DNA of 64,000 nucleotides, taken from NCBI GenBank assembly GCA_964597015.1, contig CAZQWO010000001.1:1291-65290 (forward strand). Direction: 5' to 3'. Made by a program: the position numbers and the translations under genes. Of this stretch, positions 29,992-49,485 are shown in pieces (position 1 is the stretch's first letter; every line of letters begins with the position of its first letter). Origin of the DNA: an uncultured Dehalococcoidaceae bacterium (GTDB taxonomy: Bacteria; Chloroflexota; Dehalococcoidia; Dehalococcoidales; RBG-16-60-22). The notes beneath the pieces were generated by a model. The model searched no databases. It saw only the letters and a program-made list of their open reading frames with translations, and had not been told where the DNA came from.

Positions 29992-31446
29992 ATGTCAGAT
30001 AGAGTAATCACTTTATATATCGACGATACCAGCATCCGGCTTCTGGTAACCGGCGGCAAACGGATCAAGAAATGGGCGGATGTAGCTCTGGAACCGGGCA
30101 TGGTGAAAAATGCCGTGGTGCTGAAGCAGGAAGAGGTTGCCACTAAAATAAAGCAGCTTTTCAAAGTCCGGAAGATAAACGCGAAGAGAGTTACCCTTGG
30201 CATCAGTGGGCTGCACTGCCTCACCCGGCCGATTCTACTGCCTCAGATGCCAAAAGACATGCTGCAGGAAGCAGTAAGGCGGGAGGCAAACCGGGTACTG
30301 CCGGTTTCTTCCGAGCAGCTTTATCTCCAGTGGCAGTCCATCCCCGCACCGGAGGGAAAACTGCAGGTCTTCCTGGTAGCGATTCCCCGTACTGCCACCG
30401 ATGCCCTGTTCAGTACGCTGCGGCTGGCTGGCCTCAAGCCAGACCTGATGGACCTGAAACCGATGCTCCTGGCCAGAATGGTAAAGGATACCATGGCGGT
30501 TATCGTGGATGTTCAGCCAAACGAATTTGATATCGTTGTCATGGCGGGCGGAATTCCCCAGCCCATCCGCTCCGTCCATTTCCCCGATGAAGCACCATCT
30601 TGGGCGGAAAAGATGACAATGATTAAAGACGATGTCAGCCGGACCATTGAATTCTACAACACCAACAATCCGGAAATGCCACTGGCGACAACGCTGCCTA
30701 TCTGGGTTTCCGGGGAACTGGCCAATGAAGCCGAACAGTGCCAGGTACTCTCCGATGGACTTAAGCGGCCGGTCCTGCCTCTGGCGCCACCGTTTGAGAG
30801 CCCCGATGGACTTGACCCGAATCGTTACACGGCGAATATGGGCCTGGTTCTCAAGAAAACCGCCCCAACAAACGGCACGGGACTTCTGGTAAACGAGCTC
30901 AATGTACTGCCCGCTGCCTACCAGCCCGAGCCCATTTCTCTCACCAGAATCCTGATGGTGCCCGGTGTGGTCGTCGCCATCAGCCTGCTCCTGTTCCTGG
31001 CGCTTATGATTCAAAACACTACCGCTGACACCGCCGAAATGCGGGACCAGTTAAATACTACCAATCAGCTCCTGCAGCAGAAAATGGCCCAGAAGCAAGA
31101 ATATGCCGATGCTATCGCTGAGCTGCAGAAGAAAAATAAAAATGCTGAGACCTCTGGCGGTAATTTTGCCCTCGCCGTGTCTAACCTGAAAACACAGAGC
31201 AAAGCAGTGAACGGCAACCTGGAAATAACCGTTAACAGCCTGCCGGAGACGGTGAGCCTGAGTGGTATCAGCCAAGCTCAGAATTCAATGACCATCAGGG
31301 GACAGGCCCAGAGCGAGGAGCATATCCTGTCATACCTGAGAGGGCTTGAAGCCAGTGAGCGCTTCTCCAGCATTACCATTACCAGTCTCACCAGAACATC
31401 TGGCGGGAATATCGGTTTCAATGCCATTCTTAAGGCGGGAGAATAA
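29992..31446 (+). CDS. PilM-PilN fusion protein, copy 1
   Basis: Actin-like PilM N-terminal ~310 aa, a TM helix (MVPGVVVAISLLLFLALMI), then a coiled-coil/PilN-like C-terminus. Confidence 0.75.
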   Translation: MSDRVITLYIDDTSIRLLVTGGKRIKKWADVALEPGMVKNAVVLKQEEVATKIKQLFKVRKINAKRVTLGISGLHCLTRPILLPQMPKDMLQEAVRREANRVLPVSSEQLYLQWQSIPAPEGKLQVFLVAIPRTATDALFSTLRLAGLKPDLMDLKPMLLARMVKDTMAVIVDVQPNEFDIVVMAGGIPQPIRSVHFPDEAPSWAEKMTMIKDDVSRTIEFYNTNNPEMPLATTLPIWVSGELANEAEQCQVLSDGLKRPVLPLAPPFESPDGLDPNRYTANMGLVLKKTAPTNGTGLLVNELNVLPAAYQPEPISLTRILMVPGVVVAISLLLFLALMIQNTTADTAEMRDQLNTTNQLLQQKMAQKQEYADAIAELQKKNKNAETSGGNFALAVSNLKTQSKAVNGNLEITVNSLPETVSLSGISQAQNSMTIRGQAQSEEHILSYLRGLEASERFSSITITSLTRTSGGNIGFNAILKAGE

Positions 31447-32644: not shown

Positions 32645-33457
32645 ATGGATGTAATTCTGGCTATTGTCTTGGCCATGTTCGGTGCTGCCGTAGGCAGCTT
32701 CCTGAATGTGTGCATTGACCGCCTGCCCGTGGGCAAGTCAATACTTCGCCCGCCCTCGCACTGTGACTCCTGCCAGCACCCGCTTTCCCCCGCCGACCTG
32801 GTTCCTCTATTCAGCTACCTGTGCCTGCGCCGTCGCTGCCATTACTGCAATGCGCCCATTCCCTGGCGGCCCTTCTGGGTGGAACTGGGCACGGCGCTGC
32901 TCTTCGCCCTGAGCTACTGGTTCTTTGGGCTGAGCGTTCAATTTGCGGTCATTGCTTTTTACGGCAGCTTATTTCTGGTCATCGGCATCATTGACCTGGA
33001 ACACCAGCTGATACTCAACAAAATCTCCTACCCCGCGATGGCGCTGGCGCTGGTTATTTCTATATTCCAGCCTCCACCGGGATTTGCAGATACCTTTTCT
33101 TTACCATGGCCTTTATATGGAATCATTAACGGCATCACGGGTGCTGCTATAGGATTGGTGTATATTCTGATTGTCTATTATATATACCTTTGGCTTCGTA
33201 AACGTGAGGGGTTTGGAATTGGAGATTTTAAACTGGTAATACTGATGGGCCTGGTAACGGGTTCAGGAATGATAATAGTAGCCATAACCCTGGGTGCGCT
33301 CATTGGTAGTGCCGCTGGCATTATTCTGCTTCTGATGAAGAAAAAGAAGTGGCTGGGCTGTCTTCCCTTCGGCACTTTTCTGGCCATCGCCACCATGCTC
33401 ACCCTCATCTGGGGAAATGACATCCTCGGCTGGTATCTGGGACTGCTGCATTTATAG
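32645..33457 (+). CDS. pilD: prepilin peptidase (A24 family)
   Basis: N-terminal GSFLNVCIDRLP, Zn-type cysteines CDSC..CHYC, polytopic membrane body. Confidence 0.88.
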   Translation: MDVILAIVLAMFGAAVGSFLNVCIDRLPVGKSILRPPSHCDSCQHPLSPADLVPLFSYLCLRRRCHYCNAPIPWRPFWVELGTALLFALSYWFFGLSVQFAVIAFYGSLFLVIGIIDLEHQLILNKISYPAMALALVISIFQPPPGFADTFSLPWPLYGIINGITGAAIGLVYILIVYYIYLWLRKREGFGIGDFKLVILMGLVTGSGMIIVAITLGALIGSAAGIILLLMKKKKWLGCLPFGTFLAIATMLTLIWGNDILGWYLGLLHL

Positions 33458-33569: not shown

Positions 33570-33598
33570 TTGACAAATAGCCGAATGATTAGTACAAT
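33570..33598 (+). promoter_or_regulatory. near-consensus sigma-70 promoter
   Basis: TTGACA, 17-nt spacer, TACAAT, about 30 nt upstream of the wHTH gene. Confidence 0.55.
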
Positions 33599-33626
33599 AG
33601 TCCTGCCAATAAAGTAATGGAGGCCA

Positions 33627-33911
33627 GTGGTGAGGGTAAATCGGCGGCGTTCTGACATCGAGATTATTGCCGATATGTTAAAAGTGGGCGAGAATGGCGC
33701 GGGCAAGACCGAAATCATGTACAGCGCCAATATGAGCTATCGCCAGATACAGAAGTATCTCGGCTTCCTAGTGGGTCACGGCTTTATTGACAAGATGAAG
33801 ATGGGCAATCCCTCTGTGACCTACCAGATAACAGACAACGGCCTGAAACTCCTTCATCTGATAAACAATATCAAAGAAATGCTTGAGCCGGATGAGGATT
33901 ACAGTTTTTAG
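33627..33911 (+). CDS. small winged-helix DNA-binding protein
   Basis: 94 aa. RRSDIEIIADMLKVGENGAGKTEIMYSANMSYRQIQKYLGFLVGHGFI resembles archaeal-type wHTH. GTG start (33627 or 33630). Confidence 0.6.
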   Translation: MVRVNRRRSDIEIIADMLKVGENGAGKTEIMYSANMSYRQIQKYLGFLVGHGFIDKMKMGNPSVTYQITDNGLKLLHLINNIKEMLEPDEDYSF

Positions 33912-33935
33912 TCCTGGCATCGCATCGGCGATAAT

Positions 33936-33970
33936 GACCTGAGGACAGCCGGGTCTTCGGGTCGTTTTTT
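33936..33970 (+). terminator. rho-independent terminator
   Basis: GACCTGAGG-(10-nt loop)-CTTCGGGTC, a 9-bp stem including 2 G-U pairs, followed by GTTTTTT. Confidence 0.5.
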
Positions 33971-33988
33971 AAATACAGAATTAAGGAG

Positions 33989-34321
33989 ATGAGCGTGGCA
34001 GATAAAAGAATGTTAATCGTTGATGCCGACATCGCCAGAAAGATTGACGATAACCGCGGTGATATGAGCTACTCGGAGTTTCTGGACTTCCTGATTGACA
34101 GCCAGTTGAAAGCGCCGACCGGTAGCAACAATAATTACGTTGATAAAGATGAATTCAACCATTTCGCCGCGGGCATGAAAGAGCTGCTGCGCAATTTCCT
34201 GGAGTTTTTCCTCAGTTACGGGCTGGAACTGGGTAAACAGCCCCAGGACAAGACCTTTCAGGAGTTGAGCCACAAGCTACAGGAACTGGGCAGTTCCGGC
34301 AACAAAGGTAAAAACCTCTAA
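33989..34321 (+). CDS. hypothetical protein, possible ribbon-helix-helix N-terminus
   Basis: KRMLIVDADIARKIDDNRGDMSYSEFLDFLI fits a strand-helix-helix pattern. Start is ambiguous (ATG 33989 or GTG 33995). Confidence 0.45.
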   Translation: MSVADKRMLIVDADIARKIDDNRGDMSYSEFLDFLIDSQLKAPTGSNNNYVDKDEFNHFAAGMKELLRNFLEFFLSYGLELGKQPQDKTFQELSHKLQELGSSGNKGKNL

Positions 34322-34470
34322 CCCTCCCTCCCCCATTCCTTCGCGACCGTGCTTCCCTGACCAGACTAACCCACAGCTAAATAGAACTATGTTCTAGAAC
34401 ACAATCACTTCCCCACCCTATTTTTACGTGTCATAGTCAACTGATAGTGACGTTGGCTCGGGGGTGATTC

Positions 34471-36138
34471 GTGTTAAAAGCGGTCGAGCTTCTACAGCAG
34501 GGCAGGTCAGAAGAGCTATGGCAGATGTGCTGTGGCTACCTCAAGCTCTCTCTGGAGCAGTTTATGGATATACAGAAGAGGCTGCTCCTGGAACAGATAA
34601 GGTTGCTCAACGGGTGCACGCTGGGCAGAAAGCTCATGCGCGGCGCCAGACCGGAAACGGTAGAAGAATTCCGCGAGCAGGTGCCTCTGACGACCTACGC
34701 TGACTACTGCCCCGAGCTCAGCAAGAAAAGAGAGGCCCCGCTACCTGCCGACCCCGCCTTCTGGGTGCATACTTCAGGGCGTTCCGGCGATTATCCGAGC
34801 AAGTGGGTACCAATCACGCGGTCATTTGCTGAGGAACTGAGCTCCATAATGTACGGCGTGGGTATGCTTTCCAGCTGCAAGGAGTGGGGAGACACTTCCC
34901 AGATTAACGACCACCCCAAGTTCGTATACACGGTAGCGCCCCGACCTTACATGTCCGGTACCATGGCCGAAATGCTCGGCATGCAGACGCCGACGCATTA
35001 CATGCCCCCGCTGGAAGAAGCCGAGGAGCTCTCCTTCGAAGACAGGATAAAGCTGGGCTTCAAGCAGGCCCTGTCCCAGGGGCTTGATTACTTCTTCGGG
35101 CTGTCCATGGTCCTGGTGGTGGTGGGGAACAAGTTCAGCGATCCGTCCAATAAGGTTGACATTCGTCCCCTGCTCACCCAGCCCAGAGCCCTGTTTCGTC
35201 TGGCCAGGGGAATGGCCAGGAGCAAGCTGGCACAGCGCCAGATGCTGCCCAGGGACATCTGGCCGGTGAAGGGCATTATAAGCAGCGGCCTTGACAGTGG
35301 TGTCTACCGTGACAAGATAAAGGCGCTCTGGGGAAAATATCCGCTGGATATCTACTCCGGTACCGAGGGCGGCATCATCGCCACGCAGACCTGGGACTAC
35401 GAGAGCATGACCTTCGTTCCCAGCCTGAACTTCCTTGAGTTCATTCCGGAAAAGGAACACTTCAAGTGGCGTCTTGACCCTGAATATCAGCCCAAGACGG
35501 TGCTTCTTGACGAAGTGGAGGCTGGTGAAAATTACGAGATTGTCATCTCCAACTTCCATGGCGGGGTGATGACCAGGTACCGTCCCGGAGACATGATTCG
35601 CATCACCTCGCTACGCAATGAGCAGCTGGGCATCGAAATCCCGCAGATGACATTTGAGCGGCGCGCCGATGACCTGCTTGATTTCGTCTTTATCCGGCTC
35701 ACCGAAAAGACAATCTGGCAGGCAATTGAAAATACCGGCACCGCCTACGAAGACTGGACCGCCTTCAAGAAGGAGGGACAGCCAGTGCTCAGTTTGCACC
35801 TTGAGCTGAAAAACGGCTACCAGGGCAGCGAGGCGGAAGTCGCCACCGCCATACGGGAACAGATTATAAGGTCGGACAGCCAGAGCAAAGACACGGAAGC
35901 GCTGTACCGCAATGACTTTGCCGCCATGATAGACTTCAAGGTTGAGGTGAATGTGCTGTCGCCCGGGGCTTTCGCCCACTTCACGGAGCAACGACGGGCG
36001 GAGGGGGCCGACCTGGCACACCTCAAGCCGCCGCACATAAACCCATCTCAACGAGTGCTGGAGCTTCTGACGCAGAAACCAACGGAGGCGGTCAGGGTCA
36101 GCTCCGGGACCATGGTTGAGACAGCCGCGGTCAGGTAG
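34471..36138 (+). CDS. GH3-family acyl-acid amido synthetase-like (adenylate-forming) protein
   Basis: FREQVPLTTYADYCPEL and HTSGRSGDYPSKWVPIT match bacterial GH3 N-terminal and adenylation motifs. 555 aa. Confidence 0.75.
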   Translation: MLKAVELLQQGRSEELWQMCCGYLKLSLEQFMDIQKRLLLEQIRLLNGCTLGRKLMRGARPETVEEFREQVPLTTYADYCPELSKKREAPLPADPAFWVHTSGRSGDYPSKWVPITRSFAEELSSIMYGVGMLSSCKEWGDTSQINDHPKFVYTVAPRPYMSGTMAEMLGMQTPTHYMPPLEEAEELSFEDRIKLGFKQALSQGLDYFFGLSMVLVVVGNKFSDPSNKVDIRPLLTQPRALFRLARGMARSKLAQRQMLPRDIWPVKGIISSGLDSGVYRDKIKALWGKYPLDIYSGTEGGIIATQTWDYESMTFVPSLNFLEFIPEKEHFKWRLDPEYQPKTVLLDEVEAGENYEIVISNFHGGVMTRYRPGDMIRITSLRNEQLGIEIPQMTFERRADDLLDFVFIRLTEKTIWQAIENTGTAYEDWTAFKKEGQPVLSLHLELKNGYQGSEAEVATAIREQIIRSDSQSKDTEALYRNDFAAMIDFKVEVNVLSPGAFAHFTEQRRAEGADLAHLKPPHINPSQRVLELLTQKPTEAVRVSSGTMVETAAVR

Positions 36139-36219
36139 TACTTTAGTCCACAGCACTTTGGTCAAACGACTTTAGTTTTGCTTGACAGTCTCCATGAATG
36201 AGGTAATAATTACCTCGTA

Positions 36220-39200
36220 ATGAATGTTTACACCCTGTTCCCGTTAATCGCTGTAATTGCGTATATACCGCTGCTGATTACCACGTTGAGCAGCCGCCCC
36301 TGGCAGACGCGTCACAAGCTTTTCATCGTATTTCTGCTTGTCGCCATGAGCTGGAGCCTCACCTCTGTTTTCCTGCGCAGCAATTTTTTCCCGCAACATA
36401 ATTTCTTTCTACTTCAGCTTATTCTGGTTACCTATGCCTTTACGGCGATACAATTCTATGTCTTTCTCTCTTCTTTCTTTGTCCCAGGTGAAAAGCGCTG
36501 GCTTCCCCTCGCTTACGCAACTCTGGCCCTGGTCATCATTTTAATTGCGCTGGGTGTTATGCCGGAAGGGATTCACGCTGAGGGAGACAGACTCTATCTT
36601 GATTACGGAAAAGGTATTATCTTTCTGATTGCGCCCCTGATGGTCCTGGGGGGCAGAGCCGGGTTCCTCTTCTGGAGAAGGCTGAAGATTCTGGATAATC
36701 CCATGCTTCACAGTCAGATACTCTCCCTGCTTCTGGGCCTCTCTATGTTTGTTTTCTTCACTTTTGCGTCCCTTCTCCCATGGGGAAGAGAATATGCCGT
36801 GTCTCACCTTGGCAACGCAATTATGGCCGTCATCTTCAGCTACGCGGTTATCAGACATCAACTGGTCGACATCAGGATAGTTTTACGGCGTGGTTTGGGC
36901 TGGGTAAGCCTGGGGTTTATCGGCATTCTCTGTTATGGATTATTACTGGTTATCCTCAATGCAACCCTCGGCCTTAAGTTAGATGTGGTCACCGCTTCCT
37001 CGGCCACAGCCATTGCGATTGTCGTCGCCATAATCATATTCAAACTGCGTAACCTCCTCTTTGCTACTCTGGGGAAAGCCCTGCAGGGACAGAGCTATGA
37101 CTACCGCCAGAAGTTATCTGAATTCGCCCGCAGGATACACAATGTCTTCAGCTTGAAAGAACAGGGCGGCGAACTTCTCTCGCTGGTCACCAAGGCCGTT
37201 GGCTGCCGGCGGGCCCGCCTCCTCTTCGTGGAAGTGGGCGGGCAGGATTTTACCACCCAGTTTGTTGAGCCCAGGGTAAAAGACGACTCCCTGTATCAGT
37301 TCAGCCTGAGCAGTAAAAGTCCGATAGCCGATTACCTGCTACGGGAACGCAAGCTGCTGACCAAGGAGCGTCTGTCCATTCTGCCCGAATTGCGGGGGCT
37401 ATGGGAGGAGGAGAAAAGCGAAATAGATGCGCATGAGATAGAGCTCTTCATGCCGTTAATAAGTCGGGAACGACTCATCGGCATTCTGGTGCTGGACAAA
37501 AAAGCGTCCGGCCGGTACTCTCTGGAAGACCTCCGCCTGCTTGAGGAGGTTACCAACCAGGTAGCGGTCAGCATGGAAAAGGAATACCTCCGCGAGCGTC
37601 TCCGAGAACGTGAAGAGGAGCTATCGGTGATAAACCGCTGCAGCGCCATTATCACGTCAAGCATGAATATTCAGGAAATCTATGACAGCTTCATTGGTGA
37701 GTTGAAGAAAGTGGTGGACATTAGCTGGTCATCCATCGTCCTCATCGAGAACAGCCATCTCAGCCTCCTGACTCTTTATTCCGATATAGGCTCGGCCTGG
37801 AAGCTCGGTGAGCAAATTCCCATCAGAGGCACGGGAACGGAATGGGTAGCCATTAATAAAAAGGCTTTACTGGAATCCGACCTGAAACAGGGCGGGCAGT
37901 TTGTCACCGCAAAGTATCACTACAAGCAAGGGATACGCACCATCGCCTACCTCCCGCTCATCGCGAAAGGATTGGTCATCGGCAGTTTCATTGTCGCCAC
38001 CGTCAATCCGAATGCGTACTCTCAGAGACATCTAACGCTTCTCGAGCAACTGGCTGCCCAGATTGCCATGTCAATAGAGAACTCCCGCCTGTATACTGAA
38101 GCCGAAGAGAAGGCACGGATTGATGAGCTTACTGACCTGCTGAATCGCCGCTCCCTGAATGAACTGATGACTACGGAAATTAACCGGCACTCACGCTATG
38201 GCGGCGTCTTCTCGCTGATTATACTTGACCTGGACAATTTCAAAGCCTTTAATGATAACTACGGGCACGTGGCCGGCGACAAGCTGCTCAAGGAAATTGG
38301 CGGTGTCCTTAAGAGCACCATACGGAGCACTGACCAGGCTTTCCGTCACGGCGGCGATGAGTTTGCCATTCTATTGCCGAATACACCTATTGACGCCGCC
38401 TCTCAGGTGGCGGACCGTGCCCGCCGTCATGTTGCCGCCAATGTAAAGGCGGGGCATATCACCATAACCGTCAGCCTTGGCCTGGCAAACTGGCCTGCGG
38501 ACGGCACGGCTGCCGATGAAATAGTGGCGGCGGCTGATGGTGCGCTTTACCGCGCCAAGCGTGCAGGCGGCAATCGTTGTTACTGTGCTTCGGGAACTTT
38601 ACTGGAACTGGAAGATAAGCCACTCAGATTAATAGATAGCAAGGACGGCTATATGCTGAGCGCCATCTTTGCCCTGGCGGAAACTGTTGATGCCAAGGAA
38701 CATCATACCGAAAGTCACTGGAAAAAAGTGAGAGAGCAAGCTGTCTACCTGGCCACAGCCATGGAGCTTGATGAAGAGGAAATTCGCCAGCTTGAAACCA
38801 GTGCTTTACTGCATGACATTGGTAAAATCAGCATCAGTGAAAAAATATTGAATAAGCGCGACCCGCTGACGGCTGGAGAATGGGAAGTAATCAAAACACA
38901 TCCTCAGGTCGGGGTTAATATCGCCAGCCGTGCCCCGGAACTGGCCCCATGCCTTCCCGGCATCCTGCATCACCATGAGAGATATGATGGGACCGGATAT
39001 CCAATTGGTCTGAAAGGCGAGGAGATACCTCTGGAGGCCCGCATTCTGGCCATAGCTGATGCTTTTGCTGCCATGACCACGGTACGGAGCTACTCCGAGG
39101 CCCTGTCAACTGAGGAAGCTTTAGAAGAACTGAAACGAGGTGCCGGTACCCAGTTTGACCCGAATCTGGTGGAAATTTTTTATGCCGCTACTCAGAGCAC

Positions 39201-39270
39201 CTCGCAAACACCGAAGGATATGGAAAGCGAGGAGGTAGCCTCACCAGAGGCTGGCTCTGCAGAAAATTAA
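36220..39270 (+). CDS. membrane sensor with GAF domains, GGDEF diguanylate cyclase and HD-GYP phosphodiesterase domains
   Basis: About 7 N-terminal TM helices. Intact GGDEF (RHGGDEF) with an RSTD I-site 5 residues upstream. HD-GYP signature LLHDIGK..HHERYDGTGYP. Confidence 0.85.
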   Translation: MNVYTLFPLIAVIAYIPLLITTLSSRPWQTRHKLFIVFLLVAMSWSLTSVFLRSNFFPQHNFFLLQLILVTYAFTAIQFYVFLSSFFVPGEKRWLPLAYATLALVIILIALGVMPEGIHAEGDRLYLDYGKGIIFLIAPLMVLGGRAGFLFWRRLKILDNPMLHSQILSLLLGLSMFVFFTFASLLPWGREYAVSHLGNAIMAVIFSYAVIRHQLVDIRIVLRRGLGWVSLGFIGILCYGLLLVILNATLGLKLDVVTASSATAIAIVVAIIIFKLRNLLFATLGKALQGQSYDYRQKLSEFARRIHNVFSLKEQGGELLSLVTKAVGCRRARLLFVEVGGQDFTTQFVEPRVKDDSLYQFSLSSKSPIADYLLRERKLLTKERLSILPELRGLWEEEKSEIDAHEIELFMPLISRERLIGILVLDKKASGRYSLEDLRLLEEVTNQVAVSMEKEYLRERLREREEELSVINRCSAIITSSMNIQEIYDSFIGELKKVVDISWSSIVLIENSHLSLLTLYSDIGSAWKLGEQIPIRGTGTEWVAINKKALLESDLKQGGQFVTAKYHYKQGIRTIAYLPLIAKGLVIGSFIVATVNPNAYSQRHLTLLEQLAAQIAMSIENSRLYTEAEEKARIDELTDLLNRRSLNELMTTEINRHSRYGGVFSLIILDLDNFKAFNDNYGHVAGDKLLKEIGGVLKSTIRSTDQAFRHGGDEFAILLPNTPIDAASQVADRARRHVAANVKAGHITITVSLGLANWPADGTAADEIVAAADGALYRAKRAGGNRCYCASGTLLELEDKPLRLIDSKDGYMLSAIFALAETVDAKEHHTESHWKKVREQAVYLATAMELDEEEIRQLETSALLHDIGKISISEKILNKRDPLTAGEWEVIKTHPQVGVNIASRAPELAPCLPGILHHHERYDGTGYPIGLKGEEIPLEARILAIADAFAAMTTVRSYSEALSTEEALEELKRGAGTQFDPNLVEIFYAATQSTSQTPKDMESEEVASPEAGSAEN

Positions 39271-39283
39271 CTGGTAAAATAGG

Positions 39284-39967
39284 GTGCTGACAATGAACAA
39301 AATACAGGTAATTATCGTTAGCCAGCAGGTGCTTTTCCGGCAGGGAATAGAACACTCTCTTTCCAGAACAAAGGATATTCAGATTTCGGCCACGGCTGAT
39401 GTTTCAGATGAGGTGCTGTCGATAATCGATAACCTGCCACCTGATGTCGCCCTGCTGGATATTGACACTCCGTCTGACAACGGGCTGAAGCTGGCGCGCC
39501 GAATAAAACAGCGCCTGCCGACAATCGGCGTGGTGGTGCTTACCTCCGGCCTGGATGACGCCCAGCTGTTCCAGGCACTCAAAGCTCAGGCGGTTGCCTA
39601 TTTAAGCAAGGAGGTCACCGCCAGTGAGCTGGTCAATACCATAAGGCGCGTTTCCCGGGGTGAGCACCCCATAAATGAAAGCCTGACTGCCCGACCCAAG
39701 CTGGCCGAACAGGTGCTAAGGCAGTTTCAGGAACTGTCGCTGCGCAGCGAAGCGGAGCAGTTCATCGCCCCGCTTACTCCGAGAGAGATGGAAATCCTGA
39801 AATACATTGCTCAGGGCTATCTGAACAAGCAGATTGCCGCCGAGCTGGACATCAGCGAACAGACAATTAAAAACCATGTTACCTCCATTTTGCGCAAGCT
39901 GAATGCTAACGCCCGTACGGAAGCGGTCGTCGTCGCCATCAAGCAGGGTTTGATTTCCCTCACCTAA
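39284..39967 (+). CDS. NarL/LuxR-type response regulator with an atypical receiver domain
   Basis: C-terminal LuxR HTH (LTPREMEILKYIAQGYLNKQIA). The receiver keeps Asp (LLDIDTP), Thr (VLTS) and Lys (YLSKE), but the N-terminal acidic pair is VSQQ instead of DD. The start may be ATG 39293. Confidence 0.8.
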   Translation: MLTMNKIQVIIVSQQVLFRQGIEHSLSRTKDIQISATADVSDEVLSIIDNLPPDVALLDIDTPSDNGLKLARRIKQRLPTIGVVVLTSGLDDAQLFQALKAQAVAYLSKEVTASELVNTIRRVSRGEHPINESLTARPKLAEQVLRQFQELSLRSEAEQFIAPLTPREMEILKYIAQGYLNKQIAAELDISEQTIKNHVTSILRKLNANARTEAVVVAIKQGLISLT

Positions 39968-40030
39968 TGAGCAGCTTCTACCGCAAAGGTATCTGTCATC
40001 TTCCTGTAACTTAATTCTTTATGTCTAGTC

Positions 40031-40059
40031 TTGACATCGGGCGCGCCGCGAATTACCAT
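40031..40059 (+). promoter_or_regulatory. putative promoter of the kinase-regulator pair
   Basis: TTGACA, 17-nt spacer, TACCAT. Confidence 0.35.
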
Positions 40060-40092
40060 TGAAACGGATAAAGGTGCAGCAAAAGGTGTAAA

Positions 40093-41262
40093 ATGCGTTA
40101 CCGCTACGAAAAAGAGGCGTACCAGTTTCTCGCCGTTTACCGCTTCCTGGGGTTTGCGCTGGCGGTGCTCTTCTCACAGGTTACGCCGGTAATGAGCGCA
40201 TTACCTCAGGTTCAGCTCATCACCATTTTCAGCACGCTTGGTATCTATACCATCCTGAAGGTTTTCTCACCCCTGCGCTGGCAGGCGAGGGGCACCATGA
40301 CCTACCTGATACTGAGCGGCGATTTTCTCCTCTGCATCCTGCTCGTCATCTACACAAATGGCCTGAACAGTAGCTTCCTGCTTTATTCCCTGACTCCCAT
40401 CATGACCGCAGCCCTGCTCTTTGAAGAAAAACTTGCCCTTGGTCTCGCTTCCACCGCATCCATTGTCCTTTCGCTCACGCACGTATTCCTTGCCCAGTTC
40501 ACATCACGATTTGCCTGGATTATGCAGGGGTATAACCTCACCCTCCTCATCGTCTATACGCTCTTCTCCCTGGTTGTGGCCACGGTGCCATACCGCATAA
40601 ACCTGAATATACGGCGCCGCATCGAAAGGGATGCCATAATTGAAGAGCGGCGCCGTATTGCCAGAGAGATACATGACGGTGTTGCTCAGTCATTAAGCTA
40701 TCTCAACCTGAAGACAAAGTCGGTAAGTGACCTGCTTACGTCAAAAGATACCGTGCAGGCAATTGCCGAGCTAACTGAAATCCGCGATGTGGTGCAGGAT
40801 ACCTACGAGGATATCCGGGAGTCAATCGACCAGTTAAGCACCGAAATAAAAAGCGTCTCCATTCTGGCCGCTCTGGGCAGCTATGTCCGGGAGTTCAGCA
40901 GCAACAATGGTATTCCGGTAAAGTTTGAGATTGCCAAGCCCTTTGCCCGGCTTTCCCCGGTTGCGGAACTGCAATTGCTGCGCATCGGCCAGGAAGCGCT
41001 GACCAATGTCCGGCGTCACGCGATGGCCAGCAGCGTTAAGGTAACGCTGAGAAACACCGCGGACGCGGTGGAAATGATAGTCAAAGACGATGGCCAGGGT
41101 TTTGACCTTAAAGTACTGGAGGAATACCCGCCCGGCTATCACGGTTTGGCCATCATCAAGGAGCGGGCCGAGGGGCTTGGTGGCAAAGTCTGGATTGAGA
41201 CTACTCCCGGCCAGGGTACAGAAGTAAAGGTCCATCTACCGGTGGAGAAAGTGAGGATGTGA
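40093..41262 (+). CDS. sensor histidine kinase (HisKA_3/NarX-DegS type) with polytopic membrane N-terminus
   Basis: H-box IAREIHDGVAQSL. HATPase region with GYHGLAIIKERAEGLGG. Five predicted TM helices. Confidence 0.85.
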   Translation: MRYRYEKEAYQFLAVYRFLGFALAVLFSQVTPVMSALPQVQLITIFSTLGIYTILKVFSPLRWQARGTMTYLILSGDFLLCILLVIYTNGLNSSFLLYSLTPIMTAALLFEEKLALGLASTASIVLSLTHVFLAQFTSRFAWIMQGYNLTLLIVYTLFSLVVATVPYRINLNIRRRIERDAIIEERRRIAREIHDGVAQSLSYLNLKTKSVSDLLTSKDTVQAIAELTEIRDVVQDTYEDIRESIDQLSTEIKSVSILAALGSYVREFSSNNGIPVKFEIAKPFARLSPVAELQLLRIGQEALTNVRRHAMASSVKVTLRNTADAVEMIVKDDGQGFDLKVLEEYPPGYHGLAIIKERAEGLGGKVWIETTPGQGTEVKVHLPVEKVRM

Positions 41263-41263
41263 A

Positions 41264-41935
41264 ATGGAACCAGTAAAGGTACTGGTCGTAGATGACCACG
41301 CCCTTTTTCGTCGTGGCATTGTCGCCGTTCTGACAAATCAGGAGAATATACGTGTGGTGGGGGAGGCGACCAATGGGCTTGAGGCAATCGAAAAAGCGGC
41401 AGAACTGGTGCCTGATGTTATCGTGATGGACCTGAATATGCCGCAGTGCAGCGGGCTGGAAGCAACGCAGGCGCTCCAGGCCAAGATGCCTCATCTGAAT
41501 ATCCTGGTTTTAACGGTCTCCGATAATGAGGCTGACCTTTTCAGTGCCATCAAGTTCGGGGCTACCGGTTATATCCTGAAGAACACGGAGCCGGAGGAAC
41601 TCGTCCAGGCTATTTATCACATCGCTCACGGTGGCGTTATTATTTCCCCCGTTATGGCCATAAAACTGCTTGCCGAATTCAGAGATTCGACTACCGGTGC
41701 CCCGGCCAGGGTGACCGCCGATGAAGAGGCCAAGCTGAGTCCCCGGGAGGATGAAGTGCTGCGGCTGGTGTCCCAGGGCGCCACCAACAAGGAAATAGCT
41801 GACTCCCTGTTCATCTCGGAGAACACCGTGAAAACGCACCTGCGCAACATAATGGACAAGCTCCACCTGGCAAACCGCAGCCAGGCGGCCGCTTACGCCG
41901 TGAAACGAGGCCTTGTGCCCGACAGCCAGAAATAG
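41264..41935 (+). CDS. NarL/LuxR-type response regulator (canonical receiver)
   Basis: VLVVDDHALFR, VIVMDLNMP, LVLTVS, GYILKN, and a LuxR HTH. Starts 1 nt after the kinase stop. Confidence 0.88.
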   Translation: MEPVKVLVVDDHALFRRGIVAVLTNQENIRVVGEATNGLEAIEKAAELVPDVIVMDLNMPQCSGLEATQALQAKMPHLNILVLTVSDNEADLFSAIKFGATGYILKNTEPEELVQAIYHIAHGGVIISPVMAIKLLAEFRDSTTGAPARVTADEEAKLSPREDEVLRLVSQGATNKEIADSLFISENTVKTHLRNIMDKLHLANRSQAAAYAVKRGLVPDSQK

Positions 41936-42016
41936 CCGGTTATCAGGCAACAAGTACTGTGTCCACTCACCCGAAAGGATTAGTACCCCACGCGTGAAAA
42001 TCACCTCTTCGCAGGA

Positions 42017-42045
42017 TTGTAAGTGAAATCGCCATGCTCTATGAT
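42017..42045 (+). promoter_or_regulatory. putative pilin promoter
   Basis: TTGTAA, 17-nt spacer, TATGAT, about 65 nt upstream of the first pilin ATG. Confidence 0.35.
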
Positions 42046-42109: not shown

Positions 42110-42583
42110 ATGAGGTTACCAAAGAGAGGCGAGAAGGGGTTCACACTGATTGAGTTGCTCATCGTGGTCGCCATCCTGGGCGTGCTGGCGGCGGTGGTCA
42201 TCCCCAATGTGGGCCGGTTCATCGGCCGCGGTGAAACGGAGGCGGCGCAAACGGAGTTTGCCAACGTCCAGGCAGCGACGGTCGCCATGATGACCGACAA
42301 CGAGGTAAGTGTGCTGAGAAATGCCCGCGACGGCGCTGCCAACGCCACCAGAAACATGAGCATCTTTCCCGATGACAGCGCAGTCGGCGACAAGTACCCG
42401 GACGCCAATGGAGTCAACTTCTCAGCCGGTGACGGCATCGGCTTCGTGCTCTACCAGCACGATATAGACGCTGACGCCGCCAACACCAGCCTGGTCAACT
42501 ACGTTGCCACGCAGTACACCAAGGGCACCTACTATGTTAATGCGCAAGGCACGGTAACGCAGCACACCACCGGGTATGAGTAA
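42110..42583 (+). CDS. type IV major pilin, paralog 1 (no cysteine)
   Basis: MRLPKRGEKG/FTLIELLIVVAILGVLAAVVIP is a canonical prepilin leader with Glu+5. SD AAGGAGGTG. Confidence 0.9.
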   Translation: MRLPKRGEKGFTLIELLIVVAILGVLAAVVIPNVGRFIGRGETEAAQTEFANVQAATVAMMTDNEVSVLRNARDGAANATRNMSIFPDDSAVGDKYPDANGVNFSAGDGIGFVLYQHDIDADAANTSLVNYVATQYTKGTYYVNAQGTVTQHTTGYE

Positions 42584-42623: not shown

Positions 42624-43097
42624 ATGAGGTTACCGAAAAGAGGCGAGAAGGGGTTCACGCTGATTGAGCTGCTCATCGTGGTCGCCATCTTGGGCGTACT
42701 GGCGGCGGTGGTCATCCCCAATGTGGGGCGGTTCATCGGCCGCGGCGAATCGGAGGCGGCGGATACCGAGCTGAGCAACGTCCAGTCTGCGGTGGTCGCC
42801 ATGATGGTTGACAACCAGATATCCACACTAAGAAATGCCAAGGACGGCGCTGCCAACGCCACCAGAAATATGTGCATCTTTCCCGATGACAGCGCAGTCG
42901 GCGACAAGTACCCGGACGCCAATGGTGATAACTTCTCAGCTGGTGACGGCATCGGCTTCGTGCTCTACCAGCACGATATGAATGCTGACGCCGCCAACAC
43001 CAGCCTGGTCAACTATGTCGCCACGCAGTACACCAAGGGCACCTATACGTGTGACGCGTCAGGCACGGTGACCCAGCGTGAGACGGGGTATGATTAA
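42624..43097 (+). CDS. type IV major pilin, paralog 2 (two cysteines)
   Basis: First 42 residues identical to paralog 1. C-terminal ..NMCIFPDD.. and ..TYTCDASG... Confidence 0.9.
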   Translation: MRLPKRGEKGFTLIELLIVVAILGVLAAVVIPNVGRFIGRGESEAADTELSNVQSAVVAMMVDNQISTLRNAKDGAANATRNMCIFPDDSAVGDKYPDANGDNFSAGDGIGFVLYQHDMNADAANTSLVNYVATQYTKGTYTCDASGTVTQRETGYD

Positions 43098-43175
43098 AAT
43101 CGCTTACATGTGACGGGCGGTGGAAGTTGGGCGGCGGAGAATAAGCTAGGAGAGGTGGTTGAGGGGGTGAGGTCA

Positions 43176-43209
43176 GAGAGAAGCCCGAAATGGGCTTCTC
43201 TCTCTTTTT
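43176..43209 (+). terminator. rho-independent terminator after the pilin pair
   Basis: GAGAGAAGCCC-GAAAT-GGGCTTCTCTC, a perfect 11-bp stem, followed by TCTTTTT. Confidence 0.8.
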
Positions 43210-43295
43210 ATGGCCATTTTGACCTGAAGTATTCGGGTAGCAAAGGCAGGATGGTCTATCTATCAATCAATAATTCACGCCGTGCCGATAACTCA

Positions 43296-44837
43296 CTACC
43301 CGCTGGTTTGAGTCGTCAGCTGGATAGAACCACCGGAGGTATACGGGTAACCTTCCGGAGGGGGTATGGGCGTGGCAAAGCGTCCGCTTTCCTCAAGTGC
43401 CGTAAGATAGTATCGAAAAGACAGGTAATCACCCGCCATACAGTTAATACTTATATCGTTACCCTTGTGTGATAATGTACTCACCTCGACGCCCAGTTTT
43501 TCCGCCTCCTGTACAATTACCCTGATATCATCGTTGAAACTCTTGTCCCTGACAATAATGGAACTATATTCACTGATGGCCTGCTGCAGAGGTTCACGCC
43601 GCTCTATTTCCGCTTTCTTCCTTAACAACTGGGCATTGAGGGCAACATCTTTCATTGCCATAACTGACGTCTTCCTCATTTCCTCGCCCGTAAGCTGCCA
43701 TAATGGAAAGACAAGGGCAATGGCGGCTATGATAGTAACGACTGAGTAGACCTGCTTTAAGGTTGGCCGCCAGGGCATATAAGTCTGGGGAAGCAGATTC
43801 ATATCGAGCGTTACGGCTCCAGCATCACCATTGCCATTGACATCTCGCATTGCCATTTCCTTACGCATGGCAAGCCCGATATTCGCCGCATACTGGGATA
43901 TCGGCAGGAACTCGGGACAATCCAGCGGTGGTGCCAGTGGCTCTATATTAAATTCAAGCCCGCCCAGCAGCTTCTCCATCAGTTCCGGATTAACAGACAT
44001 CTGCCCGGTGATGTAGAGTGGAGTGGCCATATCAAACGGCGTAGCAACATGACCGGCGTTATAATGTTCAACTATCATACCAAGTTGTGCCGCCAGATAC
44101 TCGGCGGCATCTTCAATGCTCATATTATCCGGCCGCCACGCCAGTGAATGCATGACTTCAGGCACACCTTTAACCAAAATGACAATGTCGAAGTTTGTGG
44201 GTTCAATATTCAGAATCAGAGCCTCCTTTTTACCGACGGCCCTGGCCAGTGCCATCGTCTTGAGCTCAATGCTCTGGGTAGTGATACCGGCCGCCTTCAA
44301 GGCAAGCACTATGTCATCAATAATCTCTCTGGGCACACCGACTGTGAATACATGGCTATCCTTCTCATCAGCGCTCAGTGTCTGCCAGAAAAAGTAGAGG
44401 ATTTCCTTGGGAACAGGCATTATATCCCGGGCAATCTCATCGACCGACTCCGCAAGGGTTGGTGCTGGTGGCAGGCTGGGCGTGGGTATGAGACGGCTTA
44501 TTGTGTAGAGACCACTTATGCTGATATTTACCTTGCTGGCTTTGATACCGCTTGAATTCATTAGCCGCTTGACGAAGACACCCAGGTCGGGCTCGACTCT
44601 GTCACCTATTTGCTCTGCTTCTTCCGATTCAAACGGGGCATCAGCCCATCTTTTAACCACCCCGCCACTCGTCTCCATGATGCTTACGCCGGTTGTGCTG
44701 ATATCAAGAGTAACAACCTTCCCAGAAACAAACCGCGCCAGCACTCTCTCCATTGTTTTCAGGAGCTTCTTAATCGCGGTGCTTAAGTCAAGAGCCAGCA
44801 CACCTTGAGATTTAACTTCGCTTTTCTGTTCCGCCAA
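43296..44837 (-). CDS. PilM-PilN fusion protein, copy 2
   Basis: Same architecture as 29992-31446: an actin-like N-terminal part, a TM helix (VYSVVTIIAAIALVFPLW), and a PilN-like end ..YLTALEESGRFA... TTG start behind GAGGTGG. Confidence 0.7.
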   Translation of the reverse strand: MAEQKSEVKSQGVLALDLSTAIKKLLKTMERVLARFVSGKVVTLDISTTGVSIMETSGGVVKRWADAPFESEEAEQIGDRVEPDLGVFVKRLMNSSGIKASKVNISISGLYTISRLIPTPSLPPAPTLAESVDEIARDIMPVPKEILYFFWQTLSADEKDSHVFTVGVPREIIDDIVLALKAAGITTQSIELKTMALARAVGKKEALILNIEPTNFDIVILVKGVPEVMHSLAWRPDNMSIEDAAEYLAAQLGMIVEHYNAGHVATPFDMATPLYITGQMSVNPELMEKLLGGLEFNIEPLAPPLDCPEFLPISQYAANIGLAMRKEMAMRDVNGNGDAGAVTLDMNLLPQTYMPWRPTLKQVYSVVTIIAAIALVFPLWQLTGEEMRKTSVMAMKDVALNAQLLRKKAEIERREPLQQAISEYSSIIVRDKSFNDDIRVIVQEAEKLGVEVSTLSHKGNDISINCMAGDYLSFRYYLTALEESGRFATPIPPPEGYPYTSGGSIQLTTQTSG

Positions 44838-47781: not shown

Positions 47782-49485
47782 TTAAGTGATTGAGAATACG
47801 TTACGCAGGATCTCATATGGAGTGGTAACTCCCTCTTTAACCTTCATCATCCCGTCATGCCACAGAGAGATCATGCCTTCCTTGTTGGCTTCCTGGCGCA
47901 TTTCATCGGAATCGGTACCTTTGATAATTATGCGGCGGATGGCCTCAGTGACTACTAGAACTTCAAAGATGCCGGTTCGCCCCAGATAGCCTGTACCGGC
48001 GCAGAAATTACAACCGGCACCAATAATAAATTCAGAGCGTTTTTCTCCCATTTCTTCTTCATAAGCTTCCCGCTCGTCAGGGGCTATCTCAGTGGGGTGA
48101 GAACAGTACGGGCAGACACGCCGTACCATTCTCTGGGCAATAACGCCAATCAACGCCGAAGAAATGAGGAATGGCTCAATACCCAGGTCAACCATTCGGA
48201 TAATGGTGCTCACGGTATCATTGGCGTGGACTGAAGACAACACCAGATGGCCGGTAAGGGCCGCCTGCGTGGAAATCTGCGCCGTTTCCGCGTCACGTAT
48301 CTCACCGACCAGTATCACGTCAGGGTCAAGCCGCATTGTGGCTCTCAGTCCGGTGGCGAAGGTAACAGCGGCTGACGGATTGACCTGCATCTGATTGATA
48401 TTGGCAAAATGATATTCCACCGGGTCTTCAATGGTGATAATCTTGCGTCCAACCGAGTCCAGCGTGTTTACCGAGGCATACTGGGTAGTCGTTTTACCGG
48501 AACCGGTGGGACCGCTGATCAGTATCATGCCAAAAGGCGTCTTCAGCATCATCATGTATTTTCCCAGTGATTCCGGCAGGAATCCGATTTCCGGCAATGG
48601 CATGAAGGCGAAAGCCTTGTCCAGGATTCTCATCACCGCCATCTCACCGTATATCGTGTTGGAAGTAGCCACACGGATATCCACCTCACGGTCACCCATA
48701 TCAAAGGTAATCTGACCGTCCTGAGGTCGACGGCGCTCGGCGATGTTCAACGCCGCCATGATTTTCACGCGGGAAAGTAGCGGCGCATGCACGCTTAACG
48801 GCAGGGCCATCACCTCGTTCAGGATACCGTCAATCCGGTAGCGAACGCGCAACCTGTCTTCTTGAGGTTCAACATGTACATCGGAGGCACGGTCCCGTAC
48901 CGCCTGTTTTATCAGCAGGTCAATAGCACGCACCACCGGGGCCTGGGCGATTATTTCCGGTGAAACCCGTGCTTCTCTCATCCCGGCGGCGCCACGGTAC
49001 CGGGTGGGAATCTGACTCAGCTGTTCTTCAAGTTCACCACCGATGCGGTAGTTCAGGTCTATCATTTCCTGAATGTCCTGAGCCGTACTGATAACCGGCT
49101 CAATTCTTCTCATGGTTATTGCCGCCAGGTCTTCAATCGCCTCTATATCCTTGGGGTCTTCCATGGCAATCACGATGGCCCCGTCTTTCAAGGCCACCGG
49201 GATGATGCCGTATTTCCTGGCCACTGATTCCGGGATTAATTTCACCGCATCGGTCTTTACACCTTCTCTTCTCAGGTTGATGAACGGTATTCCCAGCTGC
49301 AGACTGATAAAGAATGCCAGTTGCTGCTGCGTAACCATACGTTGCTGAACCAAAATATGCTCTAGCCGGTCACCCGTCTTCTGCTGCAGCTCATGGGCAC
49401 GCTGTACCTGCTCATCGTTTATAATTCCGGCCTCAACCAGAATATTCAGGACATTTCTCTTCACGCTTTTTGCCGGCGCTTCCAT
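47782..49485 (-). CDS. pilB: type IV pilus assembly ATPase (GspE/PilB family), copy 2
   Basis: Walker A GPTGSGKTTTQ. Tetracysteine CPYC..CNFC. N-terminal T2SSE_N domain. Confidence 0.9.
   Translation of the reverse strand: MEAPAKSVKRNVLNILVEAGIINDEQVQRAHELQQKTGDRLEHILVQQRMVTQQQLAFFISLQLGIPFINLRREGVKTDAVKLIPESVARKYGIIPVALKDGAIVIAMEDPKDIEAIEDLAAITMRRIEPVISTAQDIQEMIDLNYRIGGELEEQLSQIPTRYRGAAGMREARVSPEIIAQAPVVRAIDLLIKQAVRDRASDVHVEPQEDRLRVRYRIDGILNEVMALPLSVHAPLLSRVKIMAALNIAERRRPQDGQITFDMGDREVDIRVATSNTIYGEMAVMRILDKAFAFMPLPEIGFLPESLGKYMMMLKTPFGMILISGPTGSGKTTTQYASVNTLDSVGRKIITIEDPVEYHFANINQMQVNPSAAVTFATGLRATMRLDPDVILVGEIRDAETAQISTQAALTGHLVLSSVHANDTVSTIIRMVDLGIEPFLISSALIGVIAQRMVRRVCPYCSHPTEIAPDEREAYEEEMGEKRSEFIIGAGCNFCAGTGYLGRTGIFEVLVVTEAIRRIIIKGTDSDEMRQEANKEGMISLWHDGMMKVKEGVTTPYEILRNVFSIT

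Follow-up and report, generated by a model that had tools for sequence, protein, structure and literature searches.

What does a GH3-family adenylate-forming enzyme do in an island of signalling genes that lies between two sets of type IV pilus genes? The question is raised by a 64,000-nucleotide (nt) stretch of DNA, here called the window and the frame for all coordinates, from a metagenome-assembled genome (MAG) of the Dehalococcoidales (Chloroflexota). The island occupies the + strand between pilD (32645-33457) and two pilin genes. Key to the answer is the gene that follows GH3, which encodes a membrane sensor with a seven-transmembrane (7TM) domain and GAF domains. Comparison of relatives points to an undescribed small-molecule signalling pair, GH3 and this sensor, often found beside type IV pilus genes. 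On balance we favour, without great confidence, an explanation in which the two form an enzyme-receptor module that is linked to pili and is accompanied here by a clade-specific insert of kinase, regulator and pilin genes. The evidence is comparative throughout, and the organisms are uncultured.

The seven + strand genes that a first-pass annotation had described between pilD and the pilins were confirmed by open reading frame (ORF) calls and Pfam domains, and both flanks carry type IV pilus genes, as it had said. The island consists of three separable modules: a conserved core, a clade-specific insert and the first pilus set. The core comprises five genes:

33627-33911, + strand: winged helix-turn-helix (wHTH) protein of 94 amino acids (aa), HTH_45/Sso10a family (PF14947, E 2.7e-23; NCBIfam NF053610, 75 bits against a cutoff of 60).
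33989-34321, + strand: orf110, a conserved small protein without a Pfam or NCBIfam match.
34471-36138, + strand: GH3-family adenylate-forming enzyme, 555 aa (PF03321, 34.5 bits; PF23571, 49.5 bits; cutoffs both 23.6).
36220-39270, + strand: membrane sensor, 1016 aa, 7TM (HisKA_7TM-like)-GAF-GAF-GGDEF-HD-GYP (Pfam matches to two GAF domains, GGDEF and HD_5).
39284-39967, + strand: atypical NarL/LuxR-type response regulator (aRR), 227 aa, with receiver (REC) and GerE domains; it starts 13 nt past the sensor stop codon.

The window proteins were compared with 83 non-duplicate loci, mostly GTDB species representatives, in which the GH3 relative is 55-89% identical to that of the window; denominators vary with the gene relationship. 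Homologues with a source name come from Dehalococcoidales, Dehalococcoidia or Chloroflexota MAGs. The sensor gene lies directly 3' of GH3 in all of the Dehalococcoidales species-representative loci (66/66). Upstream of GH3, orf110 is present in 75 of 78 loci and the wHTH gene in 69 of 72, and aRR follows the sensor in 60 of 64; these five genes are the conserved core. What surrounds them changes. PilD lies directly upstream of the wHTH gene in 38 of 57 loci, and among the 19 loci without it there, one (L040) retains other pilus genes in that place. A kinase gene occurs within 1.5 kb after aRR in 14 of 53 loci; in the 39 kinase-free loci the next gene after aRR is usually UvrC (28/39). The kinase, the canonical regulator, the pilins and the second pilus set are a clade-specific insert. 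Both flanks vary, with pilus or unrelated genes upstream and UvrC or the kinase insert downstream, and the order of the core is constant. The island genes might, as the first-pass annotation had allowed, have turned out to be scattered in relatives; the core order is instead kept.

Two rearrangements within the core were also seen. A divergent pair of genes, encoding an HTH_17 protein and a ketoacyl synthase (KAS), is inserted between orf110 and GH3 at L003:8323-9784 and in 14 other Dehalococcoidales loci. At L066:9995-15257, three intact tandem GH3 paralogues, 67-86% identical and with all motifs, precede a single sensor gene. The window contains no homologues of UvrC, KAS, HTH_17 or PEMT/UbiE-type methyltransferases.

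How far does the pairing of GH3 with the sensor extend? The GH3 subfamily was sampled by an exhaustive profile search, which gave 187 clusters (50% identity) with E below 1e-30. The genome loci used for synteny all come from one order, the Dehalococcoidales, and those of a third clade are metagenomic and without taxonomy. Distant GH3 relatives with an adjacent sensor span 31-46% identity, and in these distant pairs the two genes overlap or abut. The relatives outside the synteny set, with their identity to the window GH3, are as follows:

Anaerolineae GH3 relatives, about 42% identity: a HisKA_7TM-GAF-HD-GYP protein (without GGDEF) encoded next in 3/3, with gaps of 0-12 nt.
Third clade, metagenomic, 36-46% identity: a homologous 7TM-GAF protein right after GH3 in 54/54 loci with at least 1.5 kb downstream.
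L173, 34% identity: a 7TM-GAF-GGDEF-HD-GYP protein after GH3.
L174, 40% identity: a GAF-HisKA-HATPase-REC protein after GH3.
L172, 43% identity: PilD, HTH_45, an orf110 homologue and GH3 kept, with a B12 radical SAM gene in the sensor's place.
KSB1 bacterium homologue, 39% identity: GH3 alone.

The outputs attached to the sensing module differ widely. Histidine kinases make up 34 of the 40 complete third-clade sensors (23 HisKA, 5 hybrid, 4 HisKA_3 and 2 with the ATPase alone detected); five are cyclic di-GMP (c-di-GMP) enzymes (three GGDEF-HD-GYP and two HD-GYP) and one is unclassified. The constant partner of GH3 is the 7TM-GAF sensing module, whatever the output, and not c-di-GMP enzymes or pili as such; the association of GH3 with pilus and c-di-GMP genes noted in the first-pass annotation is to be redrawn in this sense. 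In at least nine third-clade loci an HTH_17-like region, in the same orientation as GH3, was also noted some 450-560 nt before the GH3 gene.

The sensor of the window is related to these proteins through its input half. Its N-terminus gives no Pfam match to HisKA_7TM (PF16927) even at E up to 10; residues 2-462, which hold the membrane domain and the first GAF domain, are colinear with the GH3-adjacent Anaerolineae HisKA_7TM-GAF-HD-GYP proteins (E 3e-39 and 2e-28), and PF16927 itself is matched in 8 of 10 GH3-adjacent sensors scanned and in the L173 sensor. The HD-GYP domains of the window and Anaerolineae sensors are 38-41% identical. To judge by this alignment, the Dehalococcoidales protein looks like the same sensor with a second GAF domain and a GGDEF domain inserted. 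Both output domains carry their signature residues: the GGDEF domain (PF00990, 147 bits) contains RSTDQAFRHGGDEF, that is RSTD-x5-GGDEF, with the I-site RxxD five residues upstream, and the HD-GYP domain (PF13487, 135 bits) contains LLHDIGK and HHHERYDGTGYP, which fits the HHExxDGxGYP motif. The GGDEF, RxxD, HD and GYP motifs are retained in at least 95% of 68 relatives; motif conservation counts rest on 61-68 family members.

An enzyme gene that stays fixed to one input module while outputs are swapped is the pattern expected if enzyme and receptor share a ligand. The evidence for the linkage of GH3 with the sensor is solid, and that for the chemistry is indirect. In full-text searches of the literature, no publication was found that describes the pairing, that connects Gretchen-Hagen GH3 with sensors of the GGDEF, HD-GYP or kinase type, or that reports a HisKA_7TM ligand. 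The kind of system proposed here, a gene pair for a signal enzyme and its receptor, is already familiar.

Is the enzyme likely to be functional, and what might it act upon? The reference GH3 nucleotide-binding motifs are (S/T)SGT..G...K, YG.(S/T)E and G..RYR.GD (PMC12493201). Their counterparts in the window protein are TSGRSGDYPSK (101-111), YSGTEG (295-300) and GGVMTRYRPGD (364-374), and motifs I-III (TSGRSGDYPSK, YSGTEG, RYRPGD) together with the C-terminal K519 are conserved in relatives. The sequence matches plant GH3 structures at E 3e-12. The structure model (pLDDT 81, pTM 0.81) has the two-domain GH3/ANL fold, and in a Foldseek search plant GH3 amido synthetases take the first 15 places (E 1e-20 to 1e-18), with PaaK-type ligases next. 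By motifs and model the enzyme is intact and looks active.

The view that GH3 has no known role in bacteria is now outdated. The only characterised bacterial GH3 enzyme, OlsH of the planctomycete Singulisphaera acidiphila, joins a fatty acid to ornithine to give N-acyl-ornithine; its gene adjoins that of OlsG, which is related to phospholipid N-methyltransferases (PMC12493201, PMC12971839). Chloroflexota are not among the orders with OlsH homologues listed in PMC12971839. Orthology of the window GH3 with OlsH was considered and rejected, the NCBIfam model NF052613 giving 18.2 bits against a cutoff of 620. No gene for an OlsI-type alpha/beta-hydrolase O-acyltransferase was found in the window or in the loci examined. 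The window enzyme has in common with the OlsH-OlsG-OlsI system a bacterial GH3 protein; the partner is a lipid acyltransferase in that system and a sensor here, where no OlsI-like hydrolase lies nearby.

Hints at the substrate come from fusions and neighbours of GH3 in other loci. A PEMT/ICMT-like membrane domain of about 190 aa (motif G.Y.L.RHPG) is fused to the GH3 N-terminus in two clades (P0125, P0174). A homologue of the fused versions (E 3e-23 and 2e-24) stands as a separate gene directly upstream of GH3 at L173:5425-5991, and L174 has a PEMT gene nearby. At L172:6001-8235, GH3 is fused to a Ste14/PEMT-like domain, near a pilin gene and PilD, and the B12-binding radical SAM gene overlaps the GH3 stop codon. 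UbiE-like methyltransferases are encoded upstream of GH3 in several third-clade loci and directly upstream in the Anaerolineae loci, and a KAS gene adjoins GH3 in 15 Dehalococcoidales loci. The PEMT-type fusions and neighbours, taken with the OlsH precedent, suggest that the GH3 product may be a lipophilic acyl-amino-acid.

These observations can be assembled into a mechanism. GH3 would act as an ATP-dependent ligase that joins a carboxylic acid to an amine (an acyl-acid amido synthetase) and would be the dedicated partner of the sensor encoded next to it. The sensor would perceive its signal through HisKA_7TM and GAF and, in the Dehalococcoidales, answer through a putative diguanylate cyclase (GGDEF with I-site) and a putative HD-GYP phosphodiesterase. 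GH3 most likely makes the sensor ligand, or removes it by conjugation, the ligand being a lipophilic carboxylate or an N-acyl-amino-acid, so that the pair would turn a metabolite into a c-di-GMP level. The comparison shows the gene content, the integrity of domains and motifs, the linkage and the conserved cis elements; the substrate class, the role of the ligand, the assignment of proteins to operators and the c-di-GMP targets are the parts of this scheme that we infer.

The closest working analogues are the diffusible signal factor (DSF) and Burkholderia DSF (BDSF) systems (Xanthomonas RpfB-RpfF-RpfC-RpfG, Burkholderia RpfF-RpfR), in which the gene of an enzyme for a fatty-acid-type signal adjoins that of the receptor and the output is c-di-GMP turnover. 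There the output protein is the HD-GYP protein RpfG or the GGDEF-EAL protein RpfR, the adenylate-forming RpfB turns the signal over, and pilus motility is among the targets. The likeness does not extend to homology, either of the signal enzymes (crotonase RpfF versus GH3) or of the sensor input domains.

In logic, the closest analogy is plant GH3 hormone conjugation. Plant GH3 enzymes make or inactivate carboxylate hormones through conjugation to amino acids, often alongside carboxyl methyltransferases. JAR1/GH3.11, GH3.5, GH3.6, GH3.12 and GH3.15 share Pfam families, fold and the three nucleotide motifs with the window enzyme and are its best matches in the PDB in both sequence and structure. 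They differ in that the window GH3 is bacterial, has 14-18% structure-based identity to them, and is coupled genetically to a membrane receptor, whereas the plant enzymes are not so coupled. A more specific version of the scheme is tentative: the GH3 subfamily might make a diffusible or membrane-resident acyl-amino-acid signal, a counterpart of jasmonoyl-isoleucine that is sometimes methylated, with HisKA_7TM-GAF as its cognate receptor and with pili controlled through c-di-GMP in the Dehalococcoidales.

The same neighbours admit a reading in which GH3 makes a bulk membrane aminolipid, of the N-acyl amino acid or ornithine-lipid type, and the sensor reads membrane composition or stress, the two forming a lipid-homeostasis circuit. 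The OlsH precedent (PMC12493201), the PEMT-type fusions and neighbours, the KAS adjacency in 15 loci and the large membrane domain of the sensor are all compatible with it. Against this stand the lack of an OlsI-like O-acyltransferase in the loci examined and the OlsH model score (18 bits against 620). A housekeeping biosynthesis gene, moreover, would not be expected to stay with one sensor family through repeated output swaps, and the three tandem paralogues of L066 suggest a diversification of specificity that is more typical of signals. We regard the lipid circuit as unlikely.

Could GH3 act instead on the sensor protein itself, by covalently modifying a side-chain or C-terminal carboxylate in a CheR/CheB-like adaptation together with the methyltransferases, or by binding to it as a regulatory subunit? 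Near-obligate adjacency, with overlapping or abutting genes, and the recurrence of methyltransferase partners would suit such an arrangement. No GH3-sensor fusions, however, occur among 150 listed representatives, and the methyltransferases are membrane PEMT-type or UbiE-type rather than CheR-type. To our knowledge no GH3 or ANL enzyme modifies proteins in the way that this proposal needs, and it appears improbable.

Returning to the enzyme-receptor module, its connection with type IV pili has to be considered, since pili are the setting in which the window presents it. The first of the two pilus sets that flank the island includes a fused PilM-PilN protein of 484 aa (29992-31446) with PilM_2 and PilN matches; the second includes a 513-aa protein (43296-44837, - strand) without a Pfam match, whose homologue in a relative matches PilM_2. 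The window showed no secretin gene, which is consistent with a monoderm-type pilus. In roughly two of every three species the core comes right behind pilD, which suggests that type IV pili are a main downstream target. At L172, where GH3 is 43% identical, PilD, the wHTH gene, the orf110 homologue (34% identity, E 2e-19) and GH3 remain contiguous, and at L111 PilB, PilC and PilT lie upstream of a GH3-sensor kinase pair. Together with the position of the core after pilD, these two loci speak for a functional link with type IV pili in the Dehalococcoidia.

The pilus connection can be taken further. A component of the pilus might itself be modified by GH3, as the first-pass annotation had suggested as an alternative; amidation of a carboxylate on a pilin would be one example. 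PilD, wHTH, orf110 and GH3 are contiguous in 38/57 loci, and L172 keeps the link without a sensor, its GH3, fused to the Ste14/PEMT-like domain, lying near a pilin gene and PilD. Outside this setting the expected partners are missing: the Anaerolineae GH3-sensor pairs have no pilus genes within 8 kb, only 3 of 80 third-clade loci have pilus genes, and 18 of 57 Dehalococcoidales loci have none directly upstream. Known GH3 substrates are, in addition, small molecules. Modification of the pilus is highly doubtful, and of the two roles that had been offered for GH3, a signalling conjugate fits the data better.

The core module has cis elements of its own, which on the + strand are:

33570-33598: wHTH promoter TTGACA-17-TACAAT, an 11/12 consensus match and the best promoter-like match in the region.
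33933-33966: intrinsic-terminator-like hairpin after the wHTH gene, a 14-pair stem followed by a T run.
34382-34401: operator-like palindrome TAGAACTATGTTCTAGAACA, about 70 nt before the GH3 start, the single match in the window against 0.01 expected by chance.
36140-36177: three direct repeats ACTTTRGTY, at 36140, 36155 and 36169, abutting the sensor promoter.
36182-36210: promoter of the sensor-aRR operon, TTGACA-17-AATAAT, an 11/12 consensus match with TTGACA and ATAAT invariant in 9 loci.

The near-consensus promoter and separate terminator that had been assigned to the wHTH gene were both recovered, and the 10 aligned relatives show no variation in TTGACAA or TAGTACAAT. The palindrome upstream of GH3 has the core TAGAAC-TAT-GTTCTA, overlapping GTTCTAGAAC. 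It occurs once in each of 54 loci, all Dehalococcoidales and including those with the KAS insert, always just 5' of GH3; the pattern was not found in Anaerolineae or third-clade loci. By chance the 9-mer ACTTTRGTY would be expected 1.2 times in the window; it occurs six times, and three of these matches form the cluster before the sensor gene. Of 68 loci, 62 have two or more copies; across 174 loci the paired pattern was confined to the position after GH3. The GH3-sensor intergenic region (36139-36219) has a mean column identity of 77% across loci; it also holds a palindrome, GAGGTAAT-A-ATTACCTC, that overlaps the -10 of the sensor promoter. The sensor mRNA may be nearly leaderless, because the ATG follows the -10 by about 10 nt. 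The intergenic operators are conserved as well as or better than the adjacent coding DNA. That the gene order reflects phylogenetic inertia, a chance juxtaposition of signalling genes beside pilus genes, is very improbable and is disfavoured: the genome loci do all come from one order and signalling genes commonly adjoin pilus loci, but the flanks change on both sides while the core order is kept, the pair is still found at 31-46% identity, in other classes and where the output domain has been replaced, and the operators are conserved to the degree just described.

In the proposed mechanism, the wHTH protein and orf110, both of DNA-binding type, and the three conserved operator-like elements would bind the core module together transcriptionally, with the sensor co-transcribed with aRR. 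For orf110, the label ribbon-helix-helix (RHH)-like is a guess from its N-terminal pattern. This pattern, KRMLIVDADV..NRGDMSRSEF, is beta-alpha-alpha-like with a 'G-x-(S/T)-x-S-E' turn; R23, G24, L35, F73 and F74 are invariant in the family alignment. Pfam scans of 43 members yielded no consistent family, the sole RHH-related match being VAPB_antitox in 4 members at E 0.066, and the AF2 single-sequence model is of low confidence (pLDDT 57). The receiver of aRR has S13-Q14 (then Q15) in place of the acidic Mg-binding pair and retains D59, T86 and K109, a combination found family-wide.

Several points weigh against the enzyme-receptor interpretation as a whole. The first concern its chemistry: the substrate class is drawn from neighbours in other clades, the window itself having neither methyltransferase nor KAS, and similarity to OlsH is negligible. 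The pairing has its exceptions, the KSB1 homologue with GH3 alone and L172 with a B12 radical SAM gene where the sensor would be. The link to pili is incomplete, since the 18 of 57 loci without pilus genes directly upstream have unrelated genes there, for example a 244-aa family, a 349-aa family or a further conserved set. Some of the synteny reflects shared ancestry, given a genome set from a single order. Lastly, no c-di-GMP receptor was found, in that scans of both pilus sets gave no PilZ match and the window has no riboswitch.

Other candidates for a c-di-GMP target were also considered. PF05157 matches both PilB proteins. The N-terminal c-di-GMP-binding MshEN motif consists of tandem 24-residue repeats of RLGxx(L/V/I)(L/V/I)xxG(L/V/I)(L/V/I)xxxxLxxxLxxQ. 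Residues 10-63 of PilB2 (47782-49485, - strand) contain two 24-residue repeats that fit the hydrophobic and Q positions of this motif, with the Gly positions not kept, and PilB1 (24779-26317) has no counterpart of this N-terminal repeat segment. LuxR regulators of the VpsT/CsgD type, which have atypical receivers, are c-di-GMP-responsive. Like them, aRR combines a degenerate receiver with a LuxR-type HTH and is encoded beside a c-di-GMP enzyme; unlike them, it lacks the W[F/L/M][T/S]R motif and retains the phospho-acceptor Asp. VpsT-like binding by aRR was rejected for want of this motif, there being no Trp in its 227 aa, and this too counts against the scheme. Nor did any Rfam family of known RNAs, the c-di-GMP riboswitch included, reach its gathering score anywhere in the window.

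What then controls the pilins? Downstream of the core, the insert and its control elements are arranged as follows on the + strand:

40031-40059: promoter-like site upstream of the kinase gene, TTGACA-17-TACCAT, a 10/12 consensus match.
40093-41262: histidine kinase with a PilS-like six-transmembrane (6TM) domain, HisKA_3 and HATPase_c (PF25323, 29.7 bits against a cutoff of 27, E 6.4e-7; PF07730; PF02518).
41264-41935: canonical NarL-type response regulator (REC 103 bits, GerE 80 bits).
41967-41983 and 41998-42022: conserved blocks upstream of and overlapping the pilin -35, TCACCCGAAAGGATTAG and AAATCACC..CGCAGGATTGTAA, from an alignment of 11 loci.
42017-42045: pilin promoter TTGTAA-17-TATGAT with a weak -35; ATTG and TA..AT conserved.
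42110-42583 and 42624-43097: two tandem type IV pilin genes, 157 aa each (N_methyl; TIGR02532).
43175-43203: terminator-like hairpin after the second pilin gene, a 13-pair stem followed by a T run.

The tandem pilins are 86% identical, each with the leader MRLPKRGEKG/FTLIELL, and the first lies 174 nt, rather than the 175 nt first given, after the canonical regulator gene. This regulator has the full set of acidic pair, phospho-Asp, Thr/Ser and Lys (VDDH, MDLNMP, LTVS, ILKN), and its best NCBIfam match is NarL, at 194 bits and under the cutoff of 250. The homologues listed by the kinase search are all from close Dehalococcoidia relatives, and 118 of these 120 carry PF25323; a Pfam scan of the kinase gave no PAS match. 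In all 10 non-duplicate loci whose DNA reaches far enough, the canonical regulator is followed by a pilin gene. Where kinase and regulator are absent, as in more distant loci, one pilin gene is found instead between pilT and pilD, on the other strand.

In Pseudomonas and other proteobacteria the major pilin is controlled by PilS-PilR. The window kinase shares with PilS the 6TM domain (PF25323) and, with its regulator, a position directly upstream of the major pilins. It differs in having HisKA_3 instead of HisKA and in lacking PAS; the regulator is of the NarL/LuxR type, not a sigma-54-dependent NtrC type; the promoter is sigma-70-like with a weak -35; and the host is a monoderm Chloroflexota bacterium. 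The pair may thus work like PilS-PilR without being a member of that system, and no paper describing a PilS-like HisKA_3 system was found in the literature searched. Like PilS, the kinase is probably a monitor of membrane pilin. The canonical regulator probably acts through the conserved upstream blocks to activate the pilin promoter with its weak -35.

The proposal that a NarL-type system with c-di-GMP input drives the pilins is supported in its first half. The gene pair lies directly upstream of them, and the PilS-like 6TM domain and the exclusive distribution of one of the conserved blocks, block A, support the control of pilins by this pair. Block A is found a single time in each of the 14 loci with kinase, regulator and DNA downstream of them, and the 73 remaining loci lack it. 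The c-di-GMP input finds no support here: the sensor and kinase modules are separable, found together in 14 of 53 loci, with UvrC after aRR in 28 of the 39 without the kinase. Nor do the conserved pilin promoter blocks contain the LuxR-type inverted repeat that might have been expected there; the strong palindrome is the one upstream of GH3. The pilin leader showed no conserved RNA structure. The conserved cis elements of core and insert are four: the wHTH promoter, the palindrome upstream of GH3, the direct repeats abutting the sensor promoter, and the blocks at the pilin -35. Candidate binders for them are aRR, the wHTH protein, orf110 and the canonical regulator.

Two features near the pilus genes are peripheral to these questions. 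A 120-aa ORF without a family match (43110-43472, + strand) runs across the pilin terminator and into the convergent PilMN2 gene, and is probably not a real gene. Upstream of the pilus locus, and unrelated to the finding, are genes for an aldehyde:ferredoxin oxidoreductase (17524-19386) and a radical SAM/HHH protein (19399-20595), which indicate an anaerobic host.

Until OlsH in 2025, no bacterial GH3 enzyme had an assigned function, and HisKA_7TM is widespread without a known ligand. A near-obligate pairing of GH3 with a 7TM-GAF protein, across swapped outputs, is the usual signature of an enzyme and a receptor that share a small molecule, and both GH3 function and the HisKA_7TM ligand are directly testable in a heterologous host. 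If the tentative acyl-amino-acid signal proves true, the pair would be a new signal-synthase/receptor family in the Chloroflexota and would provide the first ligand class for the orphan HisKA_7TM. The locus also represents a non-proteobacterial route to pilin control, in which a PilS-like membrane domain is combined with a NarL-type regulator. With its four conserved promoter/operator elements, it offers the first regulatory map for type IV pili in the Dehalococcoidales, an environmentally important and largely uncultured group.

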